Source of the DNA: a phage
Reading direction: 5' to 3' (one strand)
Sequence record: PZ027503.1
Length of the DNA: 64,000 nucleotides
Shown one piece after another: positions 15,935 through 57,038 of the stretch. The position numbers and the translations under genes are program-made. The first letter of the stretch is position 1; each line of letters opens with the position of its first letter. The notes under the pieces are model-generated. The model did no database searches, was not told the DNA's origin, and worked only from the letters and a program-made list of their open reading frames with translations.

Positions 15935-15950
15935 TATACTTATACTCCCT

Positions 15951-15978
15951 TTTCGGAGGGAGTATTTTAAGGAGGGAT
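15951..15978 (+). terminator. intrinsic terminator
   Basis: ATACTCCC...GGGAGTAT 8-bp stem followed by TTTT. Confidence 0.5.
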
Positions 15979-15979
15979 T

Positions 15980-20471: not shown

Positions 20472-20480
20472 TAAATAATA

Positions 20481-20502
20481 ACCCGCTTCGGCGGGTTTTT
20501 TA
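20481..20502 (+). terminator. intrinsic terminator
   Basis: ACCCGC-ttcg-GCGGGT hairpin followed by TTTTTT. Confidence 0.6.
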
Positions 20503-25214: not shown

Positions 25215-25236
25215 AAAAAACCCGCCGAAGCGGGTT
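25215..25236 (-). terminator. intrinsic terminator (minus strand)
   Basis: ACCCGC-ttcg-GCGGGTT hairpin followed by TTTTTT on minus strand. Confidence 0.55.
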
Positions 25237-29169: not shown

Positions 29170-29365
29170 TTCTACCTCCTTCGATGCTTTGTGCCGTACC
29201 ATCCCAAGCCATTAGAATATTTGCCAATAGTTCACGAGGCTCTTTAAACCAAACTTCCATTTCATCAAGAATCTCGTCCGTGTCGTAAGTATAACCTGGA
29301 ACACCAAGTTCGCATTTCTTAAGATAGCTTTCTAACCAGCGGTGATAATTCTTAACCCCATTCAT
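29162..29365 (-). CDS. hypothetical protein
   Basis: ORF in track. Confidence 0.4.
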   Translation of the reverse strand: MNGVKNYHRWLESYLKKCELGVPGYTYDTDEILDEMEVWFKEPRELLANILMAWDGTAQSIEGGRNE

Positions 29366-29738
29366 ACTGTGCTACCTTTTCTTTTACCCAATCTACACGA
29401 TCTTTATCATAATGTTGAGTGCCAAGGAAAAGACCATTGTGGAAACTTTCCTCACCGAAAGGATAAATCGGATCTAAACCATCTTCTTCAAATAACATTT
29501 TTAGTCTCTGTGATGTAGATTTCTTAGTTTCTGAGTTGTAGTTTGTGGTTATAAGCCAATCTTCCAAACAACGACACAAACCTTGACGAGAATCCCAAGG
29601 AAAAACGCAATCTCCGACAGGAGCTTGTTCAGCCCATTTCAACCAGCCTTTAAAAAAGTTATACAGTATGTAGTCTTCAGTGTAATACATTAGCGCCTCC
29701 TTTACGTATACAATAACACCCCGAAGAACGGGGTGCAA
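29352..29738 (-). CDS. paralogous small-protein family A member
   Basis: Shares GLC...PF...VDWVKEKV pattern with six other ORFs; AAGGAGG RBS. Confidence 0.55.
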   Translation of the reverse strand: MHPVLRGVIVYVKEALMYYTEDYILYNFFKGWLKWAEQAPVGDCVFPWDSRQGLCRCLEDWLITTNYNSETKKSTSQRLKMLFEEDGLDPIYPFGEESFHNGLFLGTQHYDKDRVDWVKEKVAQYEWG

Positions 29739-29741
29739 CTG

Positions 29742-30353
29742 TTATTTAATCTGTTTGAAAATTTCGTTTGGAACGGTACCGTTTAAAATACCTTCTACGA
29801 TCTCCTGTGCAGACGTGTAAGAGAGTCCAAAAGAAGCTACGCCTAAAATTGCCTCCTTCAAAGGATCTGGCAGGGGTTCAAAATTACCTGCAACAAAGCC
29901 ACCTGCACAAGCAGCGCCTTCATCATCCCAGAAAACAACTGCTACATCGTTACCATGCGAAGTTGTGCGATGTGCAATAACTTCAACTTCGGTGCCTTCT
30001 TTAGGAACAGAATAAGAACTGTCCCAAGAATATCTTTCCAAATCAGGAACAAAGATAACCTTTTCACCTACTGGTGGCAGTTCACAACGATAGTACCAAG
30101 AATTTTTTTCGTTCATTGTTTTATTTTCCTCCACGTCTTCAAAAGTAACGATCCAATCGTAGCCGTAAGAAAACGGATATTTTAGATCTAAAGAATAAGT
30201 TTGACCTAGATCATCCTCAACAAGAACCATCCTGTCAAAGTTTGCGATGTTAGGATTATGTTTAATGATAGGGTATGTTTCCCCTACAGTAAATTGTCCC
30301 AAATGGTAAAGTTCATCTCTCCAAGTAATTTGGATATGAGTGCATTGAATCAT
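29742..30353 (-). CDS. hypothetical protein
   Basis: ORF in track, 203 aa. Confidence 0.5.
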   Translation of the reverse strand: MIQCTHIQITWRDELYHLGQFTVGETYPIIKHNPNIANFDRMVLVEDDLGQTYSLDLKYPFSYGYDWIVTFEDVEENKTMNEKNSWYYRCELPPVGEKVIFVPDLERYSWDSSYSVPKEGTEVEVIAHRTTSHGNDVAVVFWDDEGAACAGGFVAGNFEPLPDPLKEAILGVASFGLSYTSAQEIVEGILNGTVPNEIFKQIK

Positions 30354-30357
30354 AAAA

Positions 30358-30633
30358 TCACCCCCAAGAAATATTTATATATCTTACAATGTTTGCACTG
30401 TCTAAAGCCATGTTTGCACCACACCCACGCTCGCGCCAGTAACTAACAATACCTTCGCAGATACTTTCTTGTATCTTCTTATCACTTGGCATTTCTAGTA
30501 TAAGACTTGGGTTGTGGATGTTTATGTTATAATATCCTTCCTCTGCGGCTTGAGCTACCAACTTACTTACTTTTTCAAAGTACGGGGAATTAGTAGCATC
30601 TGCCATTGTTTTTAAGGTTTGTCTATCCATCAT
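30358..30633 (-). CDS. hypothetical protein
   Basis: ORF in track. Confidence 0.45.
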   Translation of the reverse strand: MMDRQTLKTMADATNSPYFEKVSKLVAQAAEEGYYNINIHNPSLILEMPSDKKIQESICEGIVSYWRERGCGANMALDSANIVRYINISWG

Positions 30634-31028
30634 TCTACCTCATCATAGAAGAAATCCAACTCTTGTTCCAGTTGTTTAACTCGATCCTTAACCCACTGTA
30701 CACGTTTTTCATTAAACATACAACGTTTTTCCTTACACTCTTGCTCAAAAGATTTTGCTGTGTTAAATGGGAAAGTTGTATCTAAGCCAGCGTTTTCAAA
30801 ACTGGCTAATTGCATACCATAAACAGAATATGCTAAAGAATGCTCTGCCCGAAATTCATCACTTATATACATACGCAGACCTCGGCATAAGCCAACATCA
30901 GCGTAACCACTTTCTCTTGGAAAGAGACGGAGGTGTTCTAACCAATTATTATAGAAATCTAAAAGAATCCTCTTACACTTCAAATCAATTGTCATAAAAA
31001 GTTTCTCCTTCATCAAACAAGTTGGCAA
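30630..31028 (-). CDS. paralogous small-protein family A member
   Basis: GLCRGL...PFN...RVQWVKDRV pattern. Confidence 0.5.
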   Translation of the reverse strand: MPTCLMKEKLFMTIDLKCKRILLDFYNNWLEHLRLFPRESGYADVGLCRGLRMYISDEFRAEHSLAYSVYGMQLASFENAGLDTTFPFNTAKSFEQECKEKRCMFNEKRVQWVKDRVKQLEQELDFFYDEVE

Positions 31029-31395
31029 GATTGTTCATGGCAATCTGGGTGGAAAGAAGACAACTGTTTGCAGACACATAAGCACGAGCTATTTTGTAAA
31101 CATAGACTTTCGTATTACAATTGTCTAGGATCGGAAGGCTTTCGTCGATAGCATCTATAACACTAAACATCACATCTAAAACTTTAATGGTGAGTGTTGT
31201 ATTTGTATCTTCGTAACCTTTTTCAATCAGACCTGAATAGAAGGTATAGTCCTCAACAGTTCGTCGTTTAAATTGGCGCATAAAATCGGAACCATCTGTA
31301 GCAGAATTGAACAAATTTTCAAAAAATACGTCCCATCCGGCAAAAAGGGCTGACAGCATGATTAAGTGATCTACAGATTCATTTTCTTGTTTCAT
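30985..31395 (-). CDS. hypothetical protein
   Basis: ORF in track. Confidence 0.45.
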   Translation of the reverse strand: MKQENESVDHLIMLSALFAGWDVFFENLFNSATDGSDFMRQFKRRTVEDYTFYSGLIEKGYEDTNTTLTIKVLDVMFSVIDAIDESLPILDNCNTKVYVYKIARAYVSANSCLLSTQIAMNNLANLFDEGETFYDN

Positions 31396-31403
31396 ATCCT
31401 CTC

Positions 31404-32075
31404 CTATTTAATGTTAAGTCTGGCACACAAACGAGAAACAGTTTTAGCATCCCATTTACCACCACGTGCTGTTGCTATTTTCTTACTGTTGAATTTTTCA
31501 GCAATAGTTTTGTAAGGTGTATTTAAATCTCTAAGGATCTCCAAACGTTCACGGAATGTCTCTGCAAAAGCATCTGCTTTAACAGAGTTGTATTCCATTT
31601 TTCCTTTTCTACGCGCAGCGGCAGTTTTAGGATTAGCACTGCCTAATAAAACACCTTTGCTTTTTGCTACAGCAAGACCCTTTTTAATACGATCAGCAAT
31701 ACCTCTAACCTCTTGTTCAGCCAGAACAGACAGAAGCTGTATAACCATTTTATCTGCATCTGGCATAATGGCTATCTTAACATCAATCATTTCTAGAAGA
31801 GTTGCTACGGAGGCGTTGTTACGACCCAAGCGGTCAACTTTAGCTACCAATAAAGTTGCTCCGGTAGCTTTACACATTTCAACCGCTTTAACCAGTTCCT
31901 TACGTTGCTTCCAATCGCCCTTACCCGAATAGTATTCAGAAAATTGACCAATAACTTCCGCATCAGGCACAGAGTCTAAGAAGTAACGGATATCGTTCTC
32001 TTGGCTCTCCATACCATATTGTGCCTCGCCTTTTTTCTGTTTAGAAAGACGACTGTAAACAACAAACTTTTTCAT
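31404..32075 (-). CDS. small serine recombinase (resolvase/invertase family)
   Basis: YSRLS...SQE catalytic region, KVDRLGRN, LAEQEVRGIADRIKKGLAVAKSKG, C-terminal HTH; start ATG 32075 after AGGAG; TTGACA-17-TAAAGT upstream. Confidence 0.8.
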   Translation of the reverse strand: MKKFVVYSRLSKQKKGEAQYGMESQENDIRYFLDSVPDAEVIGQFSEYYSGKGDWKQRKELVKAVEMCKATGATLLVAKVDRLGRNNASVATLLEMIDVKIAIMPDADKMVIQLLSVLAEQEVRGIADRIKKGLAVAKSKGVLLGSANPKTAAARRKGKMEYNSVKADAFAETFRERLEILRDLNTPYKTIAEKFNSKKIATARGGKWDAKTVSRLCARLNIK

Positions 32076-32145
32076 AACCACTCCTAAACCATTGCTGTAT
32101 TCTCACTTTACAAAATGAATAAACACTTGTCAAGGTATTTATTAT

Positions 32146-32358
32146 TTACAGCCATTCTACTCTTAAGCAGTATTCCTCGACATGTTGTTTACGCTTGTTT
32201 TTGTCTATGTAAGTGTATTCAACAAATGTCCCAAGATAGTCCTTGTCTACATTGTGTGGGCTATTGATTGGACATTTAGTACGACAAACCCGTTGCCACT
32301 GACGAAGAATTACGGCTTTGTTTTTAGGATCAAACGGATGAGGGTAATATACCTTCAT
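32146..32358 (-). CDS. hypothetical protein
   Basis: ORF in track. Confidence 0.45.
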   Translation of the reverse strand: MKVYYPHPFDPKNKAVILRQWQRVCRTKCPINSPHNVDKDYLGTFVEYTYIDKNKRKQHVEEYCLRVEWL

Positions 32359-32682
32359 TCACGCCCCCTGTTTTAGTCGAAAAATATTTTGAATAACTAG
32401 AGATGTATAGTTATCACCTAGTCCCATAAGTTCTACTTCCAAGTTTCGAATATCTTCCACCGTAGGAGGATATGTTGGTAAAAATGCTTGAGCATTGCCA
32501 GATCCAACCTCATTGCTGTAAGCAGTTGTAAAATTGTAAGATACAAAACATGAAACACCTTTTTGTCGGTACCCGATTAATCGACGAATACACCAGATAA
32601 GAGCCAAACCTATGAGAACACCTCCTAAACCAGCTAACAAGAAGGATAAGTTCATAATAGCTTCGTTAACAACTGCTTGCAT
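32359..32682 (-). CDS. membrane protein (one predicted TM helix)
   Basis: NLSFLLAGLGGVLIGLALIWCI hydrophobic segment. Confidence 0.45.
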   Translation of the reverse strand: MQAVVNEAIMNLSFLLAGLGGVLIGLALIWCIRRLIGYRQKGVSCFVSYNFTTAYSNEVGSGNAQAFLPTYPPTVEDIRNLEVELMGLGDNYTSLVIQNIFRLKQGA

Positions 32683-32692
32683 TCTTTTCTCC

Positions 32693-32992
32693 TTAGTTAT
32701 GTAAACCCAAATGTGCTACAACTTCTCTACGATAAGATAACTGCATAGCGATTTTATAGCCAGGATGAAAACCATTTACATCAATGTCATCAAACCAAAC
32801 CTCAAACGAACCGTGCTTAAGAGTCATTAAGTTGATATACCATTCGATAGTATAATGATCGTCAGCAATACCTTCGATGTAAAACTCTCGGCAACAATGA
32901 GATAAATCTTCACTTGTTTCACGTTTCCAGTCTTTGATAGCACCCTTCTCTTTAGCTTTATTCAGAATGTGGATCAGGTCTTCAACTTGCAT
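32693..32992 (-). CDS. hypothetical protein
   Basis: ORF in track. Confidence 0.45.
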   Translation of the reverse strand: MQVEDLIHILNKAKEKGAIKDWKRETSEDLSHCCREFYIEGIADDHYTIEWYINLMTLKHGSFEVWFDDIDVNGFHPGYKIAMQLSYRREVVAHLGLHN

Positions 32993-33044
32993 ATTCTCTC
33001 CTTTGTGGTTAATCTTTATATTTTAAATATTGTACCGTCTTCTG

Positions 33045-33458
33045 TCAAATAGTCTCTTTCTCTAAAACAACTCTTTGGATCACAACATCTTCAATGTTTG
33101 CCAAACAATGACCCAAAGTCAATCCCGCCTTGAAAGGTGCTTGTAGTTTGGATTCGGCTTCTACGCGAACAGAATGTTCCGCTCCGCACATGGTGTAATC
33201 TACACGGTAAACGTTTAAACCTAAGAACATAGATTCTTCTTCCTCACAACAAGGATGAAGTTCAGCCCAGTCCCAAGCATCTCCTTCTAAAGCAAATGGA
33301 GTATTGTAATTGAAGAAAGTGCAGCGCGGATATTCCCCGTTGAAAGAATCTTTCAGCAGAATATATTTCTTACCGTTTGCATGGAAGAGTTCTCCTTTGA
33401 TAACTTTACCTACAAGGATATCACTGTTAGTGGAACGGGTGCAAATAAACTTTTTCAT
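33045..33458 (-). CDS. hypothetical protein
   Basis: ORF in track. Confidence 0.45.
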   Translation of the reverse strand: MKKFICTRSTNSDILVGKVIKGELFHANGKKYILLKDSFNGEYPRCTFFNYNTPFALEGDAWDWAELHPCCEEEESMFLGLNVYRVDYTMCGAEHSVRVEAESKLQAPFKAGLTLGHCLANIEDVVIQRVVLEKETI

Positions 33459-33512
33459 GATTTTCTCCTCTCTGTTTCGATGAGATGATTATGACAAAGA
33501 CAGATCCTTCTG

Positions 33513-33839
33513 TCAACCAATTATTTCTTCTGCTACACGTTCTTTTACCCAGTTCACACGATCCACATTCAAATGACAACGGCCTTTTTCCGCTTCTAAG
33601 GTGTACTTTCCAAAATTACTGTTGAAAGGCAACACCATAACCAAACCTTTGAGGTAGAACTGCTCATGCATTTCATCCAGTACAGGTTCGTATCGTTCGC
33701 TTTCTCCTATGTCGTAAAAATCATAGAGGTTCGTGCACAAACCTGTGCAACGGGTGAACGGTTCACCTTCAGGAGCACCAGCTTCCAACCATGCCAAATA
33801 CGTGCGGTAAAATGTTAATAGCTCTTCGCTCATTTCCAC
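33513..33839 (-). CDS. paralogous small-protein family A member
   Basis: FYRTYLAWLEAGAP...GLC...QFY.KGL...PFN...CHLNVDRVNWVKERV. Confidence 0.55.
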   Translation of the reverse strand: MEMSEELLTFYRTYLAWLEAGAPEGEPFTRCTGLCTNLYDFYDIGESERYEPVLDEMHEQFYLKGLVMVLPFNSNFGKYTLEAEKGRCHLNVDRVNWVKERVAEEIIG

Positions 33840-34042
33840 TCTCCTTCGTGATAGTAAACCTCAAAAGAATAGTAAGTGAACATGCTCATTGTAACACCTG
33901 CCATTTCTGGATCAAAGGGGGTGTTGTTATACATGTCAACTACTGCCTGACCCGCTGCTTTGGCATGTGCTGCTGAATCACAGGCACAAACATCTTTCTC
34001 CCACGGAAACTTGCCATCATACTTAAGACGGACAATCCACAT
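33830..34042 (-). CDS. hypothetical protein
   Basis: ORF in track. Confidence 0.4.
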   Translation of the reverse strand: MWIVRLKYDGKFPWEKDVCACDSAAHAKAAGQAVVDMYNNTPFDPEMAGVTMSMFTYYSFEVYYHEGEWK

Positions 34043-34044
34043 GC

Positions 34045-34272
34045 TTATTCCTCCATCTCAAACCATTCAGGGAACACTTTATGGAAGACACGGGTTGTTT
34101 CCAAAAGGAATTCCAATTCTTTTTCCAGATCTGCGTTCCAATCGTGCACTTTAACATTGATTGCCAATGCACTTGCACGGCGACTCAATTCTTGACAGAT
34201 TGGATCACGCAGAACTATTGAGTCATAAAACTGACAAACAGCCTCAAGTTCATACCAGTTATAATCCGACAT
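34045..34272 (-). CDS. hypothetical protein
   Basis: ORF in track. Confidence 0.4.
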   Translation of the reverse strand: MSDYNWYELEAVCQFYDSIVLRDPICQELSRRASALAINVKVHDWNADLEKELEFLLETTRVFHKVFPEWFEMEE

Positions 34273-34598
34273 TATTCATCCTCCTCTGCAATACGATCTC
34301 TTACCCAATTAATCCTGTCCACGTTCAGGTGACATACCTCTGCATCTGATTCTAAGACATATGCATCGTAGTTCTCATTGAAAGGGAGTTCTTGACTCAA
34401 CCCTTTGTGGTAAAACTGTGAGTGCATTTCATCTGACAAGGTTGTTATAAGAGGATTGTAGCCATCCGCGTGCACATAGTCGAATAAGTTGGCACACAAA
34501 CCGCAATCCCGCCGAAAAGGTTTACCATCAGGAGCACCAACATCAATCCACGCTAGATAAATTTTATAAAACTCCATCAACCTTGCACTTGTTTTCAT
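34272..34598 (-). CDS. paralogous small-protein family A member
   Basis: Near-colinear with 33513 gene (FYKIYLAWIDVGAP...CHLNVDRINWVRDRI). Confidence 0.55.
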   Translation of the reverse strand: MKTSARLMEFYKIYLAWIDVGAPDGKPFRRDCGLCANLFDYVHADGYNPLITTLSDEMHSQFYHKGLSQELPFNENYDAYVLESDAEVCHLNVDRINWVRDRIAEEDE

Positions 34599-37322: not shown

Positions 37323-37559
37323 TTATTTATCTTGCTTGTATCTTACAAGGCGATCACACTCTAGGTCAAGAAATTTCTCCGCATTTCGTTCATGTTTGAG
37401 CACAATACATTGTTCTTTCCAGTCTGTAGCTCTTTGCTGCGCTGCTCCTGGGTCAAAATCCCAAAGCCATGCCGCGAAAAGAACTACCATAACAATTACT
37501 AAGAAACTAAACACTATTGGCATTGCACATCCTCCTGTGTGGCATGGTCTTTTACCCAT
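37323..37559 (-). CDS. small membrane protein
   Basis: MPIVFSFLVIVMVVLFAAWLW hydrophobic helix. Confidence 0.4.
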   Translation of the reverse strand: MGKRPCHTGGCAMPIVFSFLVIVMVVLFAAWLWDFDPGAAQQRATDWKEQCIVLKHERNAEKFLDLECDRLVRYKQDK

Positions 37560-37828
37560 TTTATACGGGCAGCATTCAAATGCAATAGCCCGTTTCTTTG
37601 TGCAAAATCATATTTAAACCAGTCTCCGTCATCAAACGGGTATTCTTCAGACAATCCTGCCTCACGGAATTGCATTTGCATTTCATAATTTAGATCATCA
37701 TAACCTCCAGTCCAAAGGTAGAGGCAACTACATAATCCTTTATCATGCCAGAAAGGATTATTATCTGGAGCACCAGCTAACAGCCAGTTATGATATGCTT
37801 GATAAAATTCTTTAAGTTCTTCTGACAT
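37514..37828 (-). CDS. paralogous small-protein family A member
   Basis: FYQAYHNWLLAGAP...GLC...QF.EAGL...PFD...LHLNAARIKWVKDH. Confidence 0.5.
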   Translation of the reverse strand: MSEELKEFYQAYHNWLLAGAPDNNPFWHDKGLCSCLYLWTGGYDDLNYEMQMQFREAGLSEEYPFDDGDWFKYDFAQRNGLLHLNAARIKWVKDHATQEDVQCQ

Positions 37829-43807: not shown

Positions 43808-44202
43808 TATTTAAACGTTTATTAACATAAAACCAGAATAAATCAAGAATTTTCTGATTTTATTTACGTTTAAGAGAAGATGCTCAACATCCTACCGGAT
43901 CGCCGTTGGCAATCCTGCGGATATTTACGCCCCCATGATTAAGGTTTATCTCTTTTCTTAGTGCTCAACATTCCCGCCCGTGGCGGTAACATTTCGCCCC
44001 CAAAATTATTGACTTTTATTCTATTATGTGCATAGTGTGCAATGTATCGGAATGATGATAATCATCCTCCCATTGCCCCCAATAATTATTGCCATGCTAA
44101 TGATCTCATATTGTAATTATTACAATGATTATTGTTATTGCGCTAATGTTATGATCTTGGTAATTACATATAATGCTAATAATAAGCCAGCGCAATGAGT
44201 GT

Positions 44203-44218
44203 AAGCGTAATTACGCTT
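44203..44218. repeat. perfect 16-bp palindrome AAGCGTAATTACGCTT
   Basis: Self-complementary over 16 bp. Confidence 0.5.
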
Positions 44219-44379
44219 GCAATTATTGCAAGCTACGCAATAACAAGAAATAACCGTCACCGATGGTTATGATTGTTGGGGTGTAGTTGGCTTATTATTA
44301 GCTCGCTATGTGTCCGGCATAGCGTGCTAATGATGATCCTGGGAATGATTCGTTTTGTAATGATTTCATTCAGTCACTA

Positions 44380-55967: not shown

Positions 55968-56234
55968 ATGACAAATACTACATTACACCTTATGCACTCA
56001 TTGGGCTGGCAAGGCGGCACGGTGCACCAGGTAGCAAGCGCAACGGGCTTAAAGGTTGAAACAGTTCTCAACCTGGGCGATCATAAGGTGGAAGAGATAG
56101 ATCATTTTGATTCGTTCGCTGATGGTTATTTATGGGCTTGCAGTGGCGGCGGGGAAAGCAAGATACCGCCAGGGGAGCGGGGTAATATGTATTTTTGGTT
56201 AGGTGTCCTATCCTGGCAAGAAGATAAAAAATAA
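55968..56234 (+). CDS. hypothetical protein (lone plus-strand gene inside minus-strand block)
   Basis: 88-aa ORF with AAGGG RBS; GC-richer than surroundings. Confidence 0.45.
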   Translation: MTNTTLHLMHSLGWQGGTVHQVASATGLKVETVLNLGDHKVEEIDHFDSFADGYLWACSGGGESKIPPGERGNMYFWLGVLSWQEDKK

Positions 56235-56262
56235 TCTTGACAAGCCCAGGGATCGGGCTTAT
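56234..56262 (+). promoter_or_regulatory. sigma70-like promoter
   Basis: TTGACA, 17-bp spacer, TATACT; no sizeable ORF downstream. Confidence 0.5.
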
Positions 56263-56269
56263 ACTGTTT

Positions 56270-56480
56270 TACATACAGAAGAGGAAGCGCCACCCCACGG
56301 CGTAAAGGCGGGGCTAACATACCAGGGCGCTGGTTGGAAGGTTGATCGCCGGTAGGCTGGGCGCTATATATTTGTAAAGAAATGTAAAGATAAAATAATC
56401 GCTTGCTTTCCTGGCTGGATCTGTTATTCTTATTACATGGCGAGGGGACACGGGAGCGCGAGACAAACACCACCCCTGCG
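56270..56480 (+). ncRNA. candidate non-coding transcribed region (unclassified)
   Basis: Downstream of consensus promoter; GC-rich with several potential helices; no ORF over 20 codons. Confidence 0.2.
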
Positions 56481-56493
56481 CGTCATTCTCTAG

Positions 56494-56507
56494 ATGAGAA
56501 TGATTAT
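56494..56507. repeat. ATGAGAATGATTAT direct repeat, copy 2
   Basis: Identical to 43794-43807; lies in Fur-box-like near-palindrome GAGAATGATTATCATTC. Confidence 0.4.
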
Positions 56508-56617
56508 CATTCACCTTATTAAATAAGAATCAATCTCATTTATAAACTTAAATGCGAATCATTATCATTTGCATTTCCATATGAGAACTCTTCTCATTCT
56601 CACCTGCATAAATTTTT

Positions 56618-56660
56618 GTAAACTTTAAATTTTGCTTTTGTACTTTCATTTTTGTAAAAG
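56618..56660. repeat. about 40-bp direct repeat, copy 1 (AAACTTTAAATTTTG...TTTTGTAAA)
   Basis: About 35 of 39 positions identical to copy at 56756-56798; period about 138 bp. Confidence 0.5.
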
Positions 56661-56755
56661 CAAAAAAACTTTAAATACTGTGGGCGCGCAAAATTTTTAA
56701 AATTTTCCTTGACTTTTGAGTTTTGTTTTGTATCTAACATTTTAAGATAATTTTC

Positions 56756-56798
56756 CTAAACTTTAAATTTTGGTTTTCAACTTTCACTTTTGTAAATT
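56756..56798. repeat. about 40-bp direct repeat, copy 2
   Basis: See 56618-56660; each copy followed by a shorter related AAAACTTTAAATA motif. Confidence 0.5.
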
Positions 56799-56957
56799 CT
56801 TAAAAAGTTTAAATAATTTGAGGGATTTTTGAGATAATGGATAGTGGGAATTTGATATAACCTTTAATCTTATTAGTAGACCTTCAGGAACCCACTTAGA
56901 TCGAATCCTAGTGATGCAAACTGAAAAAGATAAGGGTTTGTATAGGACAAAATAACA

Positions 56958-56990
56958 GGCTCTCTACGGTGCTGTAGGAGCCTTATTTCT
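56958..56990. terminator. bidirectional terminator-like hairpin
   Basis: GGCTC.CTAC-ggtgct-GTAG.GAGCC followed by TTATTTCT (plus) and TGTTATTTTG (minus). Confidence 0.45.
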
Positions 56991-57038
56991 ATGCTACAAA
57001 GTGACACCTTTGTTCTAAAAATGAAAAAAGTTAAAATA

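Follow-up and report, generated by a model that had tools for sequence, protein, structure and literature searches.

A conserved small serine recombinase with a tentative resolvase role in virulent Phapecoctavirus phages

Introduction

The genus Phapecoctavirus (subfamily Stephanstirmvirinae) comprises the phAPEC8-like virulent myoviruses of Escherichia coli, which have genomes of ~150 kb. Here we describe a gene for a small serine recombinase in a stretch of 64,000 nucleotides (nt) of phage DNA (sequence record PZ027503.1), and we refer to this whole stretch as the window. The window is Phapecoctavirus DNA, 99.1% identical to Escherichia phage anhysbys and 95–99% identical to ~65 other Phapecoctavirus records. 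The closest described counterparts of the gene are phAPEC8_0049, annotated as a "putative site-specific recombinase", and the copies in other phapecoctaviruses; these share their sequence, position and promoter with the window gene. Gene 053 of phage phi92, annotated as a "DNA invertase", encodes a protein 57% identical to the window recombinase and lies at a different locus. Other orthologues have been labelled hypothetical protein, "resolvase" (ESCO13), "serine recombinase" (UP17), "DNA invertase" and, spuriously, "methionine ABC transporter". The gene is not new, being already present in public genomes.

The published accounts of these phages differ on the gene. A resolvase that keeps concatemers as single genomes has been put forward as a speculation (PMC10282059), and two other papers state that no recombinase is present (PMC5374246, PMC10269720). 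Our literature search found no experimental work on the gene, and the papers at most speculate about it. The matter is of practical concern, as phAPEC8-like phages have repeatedly been put forward as therapeutics for pathogenic E. coli, and a gene labelled "recombinase" routinely counts as a warning of lysogeny.

Results

Gene and protein architecture

The coding sequence, including the stop codon, occupies positions 31404–32075 on the minus strand. The open reading frame (ORF) listing and the sequence give an ATG start, a TAG stop at 31404–31406 and a product of 223 amino acids (aa); an alternative GTG start two codons upstream of the ATG would give 225 aa. Pfam Resolvase (PF00239) matched residues 5–142 (E = 5e-18; 66 bits against a cut-off of 23.3). 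The best PHROG match was phrog_125, "DNA invertase" (E = 2.6e-32), followed by phrog_95, "integrase". No NCBIfam equivalog was reached, the best candidates (YneB, XisF, Mpi and CcrB) all scoring far below their cut-offs. The original prediction, made from the letters alone, had placed a 223-aa resolvase/invertase-type serine recombinase here, and the ORF and the PF00239 match bear it out; the motifs that it quoted were found as VVYSRLSKQ, ESQEND and AKVDRLGRNN.

In a family alignment of 39 homologues, reaching down to ~30% identity, Y7, R9, S11, Q25, R58, D81, R82 and R85 were invariant, and the acidic E-helix residues E120 and E122 were at least 90% conserved. The catalytic Ser and the DRLGR motif are thus both present on a proper alignment. 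The invariant residues match the catalytic Ser and the Arg/Asp set of gamma-delta resolvase (Y6, R8, S10, D67, R68 and R71), and the alignment to gamma-delta/Tn3 resolvase spans DRLGR and the E-helix. Judged by these residues, the enzyme is predicted to be catalytically intact. From the catalytic Ser to the conserved Gln, the spacing is 13 residues, as in large serine recombinases.

The AlphaFold model of the protein is confident (predicted local distance difference test, pLDDT, 89). Its catalytic domain and E-helix, residues 1–146 (31638–32075, minus strand), are supported by the family alignment and by sequence and fold matches to gamma-delta/Tn3 resolvase, Gin, Sin and Bxb1. The C-terminal DNA-binding module, residues 147–223 (31407–31637, minus strand), consists of a long helix (149–172) after the E-helix and a three-helix helix-turn-helix (HTH; 175–183, 188–197 and 210–219), after which the chain ends. 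A fold search with the model returned Bxb1 integrase as the best full-length match, followed by the catalytic domains of Sin, gamma-delta and TP901-1.

A C-terminal HTH had been claimed in the original prediction; it is present, but appears to be of the recombinase (large-serine-recombinase) type. HTH_7 was not found, and Pfam at E ≤ 0.1 gave just Resolvase and a weak match to Recombinase (PF07508; residues 187–216, E = 0.003, 18.2 bits against a cut-off of 21.1, positions 19–48 of 102). The protein itself had no Pfam match to PF20552 (HTH_62). When the last 77 residues alone were used as query against 1.8 billion representatives, the retrieved proteins carried PF07508 and PF20552 above threshold, often in several copies, and one homologue of the recombinase (P0083) has a precomputed PF20552 match. 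Family-profile alignments to the Bxb1 and SPbeta integrases reached into the C-terminal module; those to gamma-delta resolvase and Gin ended at about residue 152, and those to Tn3 resolvase and Sin at about residues 172 and 195, respectively. The predicted architecture is therefore a resolvase-type catalytic domain with an E-helix and a single recombinase-type HTH (HTH_62, or the start of PF07508) in place of HTH_7; the remainder of the recombinase domain is missing, as are the zinc ribbon and the coiled coil. Proteins of this composition form an uncharacterised subfamily.

A sigma-70-type promoter, TTGACA-17-TAAAGT (32105–32133, minus strand), is predicted within the 70-nt gap that follows the stop codon of the upstream gene, and a ribosome-binding site (RBS), AGGAG (32081–32085, minus strand), was read from the sequence 5 nt before the ATG. 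The promoter had already been proposed for the gene, and our minus-strand scan recovered it at 32133..32105 with 10 of 12 consensus matches. Promoter-like sites in the whole 6-kb region numbered 20 against an expected 14.9 ± 3.2, which is no excess over chance; what makes the promoter plausible is that it is intergenic and is conserved in a relative, not the site count.

Conservation and selection

A translated search found the recombinase in 163 phage records. Sixty-three phapecoctavirus records encode it at 99% protein identity or more, mostly 100%. Identity falls to 74% in phiWec181/188, 67% in Citrobacter phage Tr1, 57% in phi92 and other Justusliebigvirus phages, 55% in Klebsiella relatives, 35–39% in Vibrio phages of ~130 kb and 30% in some ICP1 isolates. 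Compared with three relatives, the 672-nt gene showed 6–9 nucleotide differences, all of them synonymous, and no amino-acid change, while the genes beside it accumulated amino-acid changes freely in the same comparison. The recombinase is under strong purifying selection, and it is fixed in Stephanstirmvirinae (Phapecoctavirus and the phi92-like phages). In ICP1 2017_DRC_82 (L018 4001–4756), the 30%-identical homologue lies between the former GP30 and GP41, among genes labelled "Annotated with Prodigal", which suggests that this block is a variable accessory region.

Two loci and a mosaic DNA-binding module

In the window, the recombinase gene sits in an array of ~36 kb with ~100 small minus-strand genes of unknown function, as its earlier description among small hypothetical genes had it. 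In phi92 and in Klebsiella phage phi1_175008, the gene instead lies between orthologues of anhysbys gp181 and gp180, in a block of DNA-methyltransferase, phosphatase and DprA genes. The corresponding position in the window is empty: a 45-nt intergenic gap (15935–15979, plus strand) with a hairpin, ACTCCCTTTTCGGAGGGAGT, at 15944–15963. The genes flanking the gap are orthologous to those of phi92 (anhysbys gp181 and phi92 gp54, 69% identical; gp180 and gp52, 35%). This empty locus is 16 kb from the window recombinase, which is on the opposite strand. Neither the filled nor the empty sites showed flanking repeats or att-like remnants. In phiWec181 and Tr1, the gene is again in the early array, with unrelated neighbours.

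Directly upstream of the recombinase, a TTGAC-type promoter-like site was present in four of the five copies examined, Tr1 being the one with no evident site. In the copies of phi92 and the Klebsiella phage, this position holds a TTGAC(T/A) site. The phiWec181 promoter, TTGACA-17-TAAAAT, is homologous to that of the window and is situated within the 3' end of another upstream gene. The window and phiWec181 are homologous at the DNA level, with 82% identity, from 68 nt upstream of the ATG (the promoter) to about codon 145, where the homology ends. The catalytic modules of the two proteins are 95% identical and the DNA-binding modules 36%. Across lineages with catalytic domains 67–95% identical, the DNA-binding modules share 36–43%, and that of the window is nearer to that of phi92 (43–49%) than to that of phiWec181. 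The homology block from the promoter to codon ~145 shows modular exchange, and the promoter and the gene behave as a cassette whose DNA-binding end has been exchanged. The prior annotation in dozens of public genomes, the HTH type, the two alternative loci and the mosaic DNA-binding module all go beyond the original prediction.

Homologues on plasmids and in bacteria

Homologues at 94–99% coverage and 35–40% identity were found on 109 plasmids, 92 of them non-mobilisable. Some of these plasmids are just 5.8–7.3 kb and carry little besides replication and partition genes. We examined three: Klebsiella pIIIF7SW-P1_2, Marinovum pMaD11 and Synechococcus pIITB3_2. Non-coding DNA of ~650 nt precedes the recombinase in two of them, and ~140 nt on the Synechococcus plasmid. 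Dyads of 32–34 bp lie upstream of the gene in two of the three. That of the Klebsiella plasmid spans 34 bp about a central dinucleotide, TATCATTTGTTTGCCG-AA-CGGCAAATTTATGATA, and lies 34 nt ahead of the ATG; that of the Marinovum plasmid spans 32 bp. Upstream of the Synechococcus gene there are three copies of CTTGTAACAC. On very small plasmids, multimer resolution is a plausible role for the recombinase. Distant bacterial homologues were found near prophage ends, in prophages and in a small primase-bearing element; we take these contexts to have no bearing on the role in the phage.

Possible roles of the recombinase

The role that we consider most likely, and hold tentatively, is that of a simple-site resolvase or cyclase, which by analogy would carry out recombination between two copies of a single site in the phage DNA. 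This reading draws on the invariant catalytic set, the confident model, the constraint on the protein, the promoter kept at both loci and the plasmid homologues. The recombinase would be made early, from a host-type promoter; a dimer would bind a short simple site; and strands would be exchanged by the subunit rotation usual for serine recombinases. Replicating phage genomes would in this way be monomerised or cyclised, as the small-plasmid homologues presumably do for plasmid multimers. Resolution of concatemers or co-integrates was among the roles originally proposed. It is still the best guess, the analogy with the plasmid homologues being what keeps it so, and the res-like site that would accompany it was not found.

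A number of observations weigh against such a role. The plasmid analogy for multimer resolution is itself a presumption, and a lytic phage packages from concatemers, with no obvious gain from monomerisation. The sister group (rV5-like, PVP-SE1-like and CR3-like phages), which shares the genome plan and a non-coding element, was absent from the recombinase matches, and the function is therefore not needed for this kind of replication cycle. In phage Schickermooser (MK373788; L013 1500–2150), the recombinase copy is missing 19 nt in six small deletions. They fall within codons ~12–80, in ~230 nt of otherwise 98% identical sequence, and only a 128-aa C-terminal ORF is annotated; this copy is either a real pseudogene, and so a natural knockout, or the product of poor sequencing. 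Our scans of the phage DNA found no binding or crossover site. Crossover-type dyads (arms of 12–14 nt and a 2-nt centre) were as frequent as in shuffled sequence, both within 5 kb of the gene and in the whole window. Upstream dyads at 57 viral loci of the family were not enriched (8.4 of 12, against 8.2 in controls). The sole dyad within 5 kb, a 13+2+13 arrangement inside the recombinase gene itself (31560–31587, CTCTGCAAAAGCA-TC-TGCTTTAACAGAG), was rejected as a site: it loses a pair by synonymous change in four of five relatives, and neither the window nor anhysbys contains another copy of it. Upstream of the recombinase, we found no res site with crossover and accessory subsites; the 70 nt available there are too short for a multi-subsite res.

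Further candidates for a site were set aside. Around the gene (24–40 kb) and in the whole window, inverted and direct repeats gave nothing above chance, in line with the earlier failure to find crossover-type inverted repeats by eye. The best pair flanking the gene (30375–30412 and 32511–32548; 38 nt, 74%) belongs to a set of 253 similar pairs and was taken as chance. An AT-rich 33-bp dyad over the -35 element (32114–32146) pairs 10 of 16 positions per arm about an odd centre, which is chance level, and is not conserved in phiWec181. Between two Vibrio-phage contigs that are 97% identical (L032 and L033, ~2944–2985), a promoter hairpin upstream of the recombinase is flipped: its inner ~18 nt, bounded by 9-nt inverted repeats, have the opposite orientation, which turns the presumed -10 from TAATAT into TTATAT, and the flanks are collinear. 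We interpret this as a hairpin flip and not as the work of the recombinase.

Possible, if unlikely, is that the promoter and gene form a self-contained mobile or "moron"-like cassette, which would persist by moving or being exchanged between phage genomes, possibly through its own activity. Such a cassette would explain the different loci in the two genera, one of which is precisely empty in the window, the neighbours that differ in every early-array lineage, the phiWec181 homology block that begins at the promoter and ends at codon ~145, and the distant homologue confined to a variable block of some ICP1 isolates. However, the gene is present in all of the ~65 close Phapecoctavirus and the listed phi92-like records, always at the genus-specific locus, and is not sporadic as homing genes are. 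The filled and empty sites lack flanking repeats or att-like remnants, and the relocation can be explained by ordinary recombination between co-infecting phages. The extreme purifying selection on the whole protein likewise argues for a benefit to the phage.

We think it rather improbable that the target is DNA other than that of the phage (the host chromosome, a prophage, a satellite, a plasmid or a competing phage), with the recombinase serving an early take-over or an action against competitors. The early-type promoter and the early gene array would fit such a function, as would the absence of a detected site on the phage. Fast divergence or swapping of the DNA-binding module, beside a catalytic module that keeps 95% identity, is also what changing targets would lead one to expect. 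Nevertheless, positive evidence is lacking, and defence-system profiles matched neither the recombinase nor three of the four neighbours tested. Two E. coli phage lineages also differ in their DNA-binding modules, which speaks against one conserved site in the host. In a more speculative proposal, to which we give a small chance, a minimal, unregulated recombinase with a lineage-exchanged DNA-binding module might drive site-specific exchange between DNA molecules in the course of infection, either as a promoter-plus-gene cassette that hops between phage loci, a single-gene mobile element of virulent phages, or as an early weapon that rearranges host or competitor DNA in a targeted way.

A DNA invertase of the Gin/Hin/Cin kind, flipping a segment such as a tail-fibre or promoter switch, is very unlikely. 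Relatives are often annotated as "DNA invertase", the best PHROG carries the same name, and in these phages the short tail fibre and its chaperone are homologues of S/U of Mu, where S/U belong to the G segment that Gin inverts (PMC8594841). Yet no inverted-repeat pair, such as two inverted ~26-bp crossover sites around a segment, was found within 8 kb of the gene or in the window, and self-comparison of 148 kb of anhysbys gave no inverted repeat longer than 22 nt. The two 22-nt pairs in that genome were terminator hairpins and an isolated match between two coding regions (11388 and 63079), the second position of which is altered in the window. The structural, tail and tail-fibre genes of anhysbys all lie on one strand, with no opposed alternative cassettes, so that there is no arrangement like the Mu G segment. 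The protein has no HTH_7 domain, and the window segments compared, 1–25000 and 30000–34000, each align to a single place in the record of each best-matching relative. Flipping of a nearby segment, the invertase switch that the original prediction had entertained, is largely excluded.

Least probable of all is that the protein has been domesticated as a DNA-binding regulator and has lost recombination, or that it is the integrase of a cryptic lysogenic or carrier state. For the former speak the gene's own promoter and, in the phi1_175008 copy, a perfect 10-nt inverted repeat that overlaps the presumed -10 like an autoregulatory operator; but the catalytic Ser, Arg and Asp, needless in a pure regulator, are invariant in 39 diverse homologues, and this together with the strong purifying selection disfavours the regulator, which had also been suggested. 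For the latter speak the distant homologues near prophage ends; but no DNA similar to the gene was found in 5,426 complete E. coli genomes, which argues against an integrated state and indicates that the gene is not used for lysogeny, and the phages are described as strictly lytic (PMC5374246, PMC10282059). No large integrase had been seen in the window, and none is annotated in the 148.1 kb that we read of the 149.3-kb genome of the closest relative. As the recombinase has no copies in these host genomes and no att-type architecture, the evidence is against its being an integrase, and it should not count as a marker of lysogeny in candidate therapeutic phages.

Neighbouring genes and non-coding elements

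No transposase or plasmid backbone lies beside the recombinase, whose neighbours encode small phage proteins without a known function. Among the defence-system profiles, the protein of 136 aa encoded downstream gave one marginal match, to Cas6b (E = 0.0056), taken as noise. The recombinase region is flanked by two copies of a family of paralogous early proteins of ~110 aa, detected as direct repeats in the DNA (29352–29690, 30630–30995, 33513–33833, 34272–34598 and ~37540–37800). The members share the C-terminal motif RVxWVKxRV, and the copy tested matched phrog_2510 (unknown function). At ~25 kb, the small-gene array converges with a plus-strand block for nucleotide metabolism and DNA modification. 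A terminator hairpin, AACCCGCTTCGGCGGGTTTTTT, occurs as perfect 22-nt inverted copies at 20480–20501 and 25215–25236, and the latter copy marks the meeting point of the metabolic block and the early array.

Elsewhere in the early region, a palindrome cluster at 44166–44311 has 24-nt arms 98 nt apart, and a relative has an overlapping 38-nt palindrome, GCAATAATTGCAAGCGTAATTACGCTTACACTTATTGC, at this cluster. Between 47100 and 55500, at least nine copies of an intergenic unit were found on the minus strand, each made up of TTGACA-N17-TAAGAT, a GC hairpin (GGGCGGCAATGGTGCCGCC or a variant), an RBS and an ATG. The unit looks like an early promoter with a stem-loop in the 5' untranslated region before many small early genes.

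A non-coding region of ~800 nt lies at 56235–57038. Its GC-rich part, ~56270–56540, is found at 70–79% DNA identity in 386 phage records of several subfamilies and is unannotated. Neither strand of the region gave an Rfam match or a folding signal. A promoter, TTGACA-17-TATACT, read from the sequence at 56229–56266, points into it. Palindromes at 56490–56610 (GAGAATGATTATCATT and GCGAATCATTATCATTTGC) match what we take to be the E. coli Fur-box consensus. Fifty-five nt of the same stretch match T5-like phages at 84–87%, in one record inside an annotated left terminal repeat. As a single recombination site, the palindromes (56.49–56.6 kb) were rejected because of the Fur-box match and because they also occur in T5-like phages that are absent from the recombinase matches. 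For the phi92-like phage BME3, a 342-bp direct terminal repeat has been reported from PhageTerm (PMC12210895); it falls in the homologous non-coding region and holds the motif of these palindromes. A physical genome end may lie near 56490–56610. Beside the palindromes, at 56611–56820, are two 72-nt AT-rich direct repeats rich in AAACTTTAAAT; they are iteron-like and could be an origin or a packaging signal.

Discussion

The window recombinase gene is accessory but conserved to an unusual degree; rV5-like phages and their relatives with the conserved terminal non-coding element dispense with it. As a functional analogy, the system nearest to the proposed role of resolvase or cyclase is Cre-loxP of phage P1, in which a phage recombinase acting at one simple site cyclises incoming DNA and resolves dimers. 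Cre differs in being a tyrosine recombinase of a temperate plasmid-prophage, and no lox-like site was found at the window recombinase.

Among serine recombinases, the protein resembles gamma-delta/Tn3 resolvase, Sin, Hin and Gin in its length of ~200 aa, its N-terminal catalytic domain, E-helix and C-terminal HTH, and its aligned catalytic residues; this group also gave its best sequence matches among solved structures. It departs from the resolvase/invertase group in that its HTH is not HTH_7, in the extra long helix 149–172 and in the 13-residue Ser–Gln spacing. Moreover, no res with accessory sites, no transposase and no inverted crossover sites were found at the gene. To the large serine integrases, of the Bxb1, phiC31, SPbeta SprA and A118/TP901-1 type, it seems to be linked by its C-terminal module, probably the HTH that opens the "recombinase domain". 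Unlike them, it has 223 aa instead of 450–600, it has neither the zinc ribbon nor the coiled coil, by which the choice of att site and the direction of the reaction are set, and it has no attP/attB and no lysogeny.

The remaining comparison is with the "recombinase family proteins" of small plasmids. Their genes have upstream dyads or repeated motifs in longer non-coding DNA, whereas upstream of the phage copy there are 70 nt, without a convincing site. If the sites prove simple, this compact and modular family (223 aa, one HTH and a swappable DNA-binding end) may be of interest as a source of recombinase tools. In both length and architecture, the small-plasmid proteins are the same as the window recombinase.

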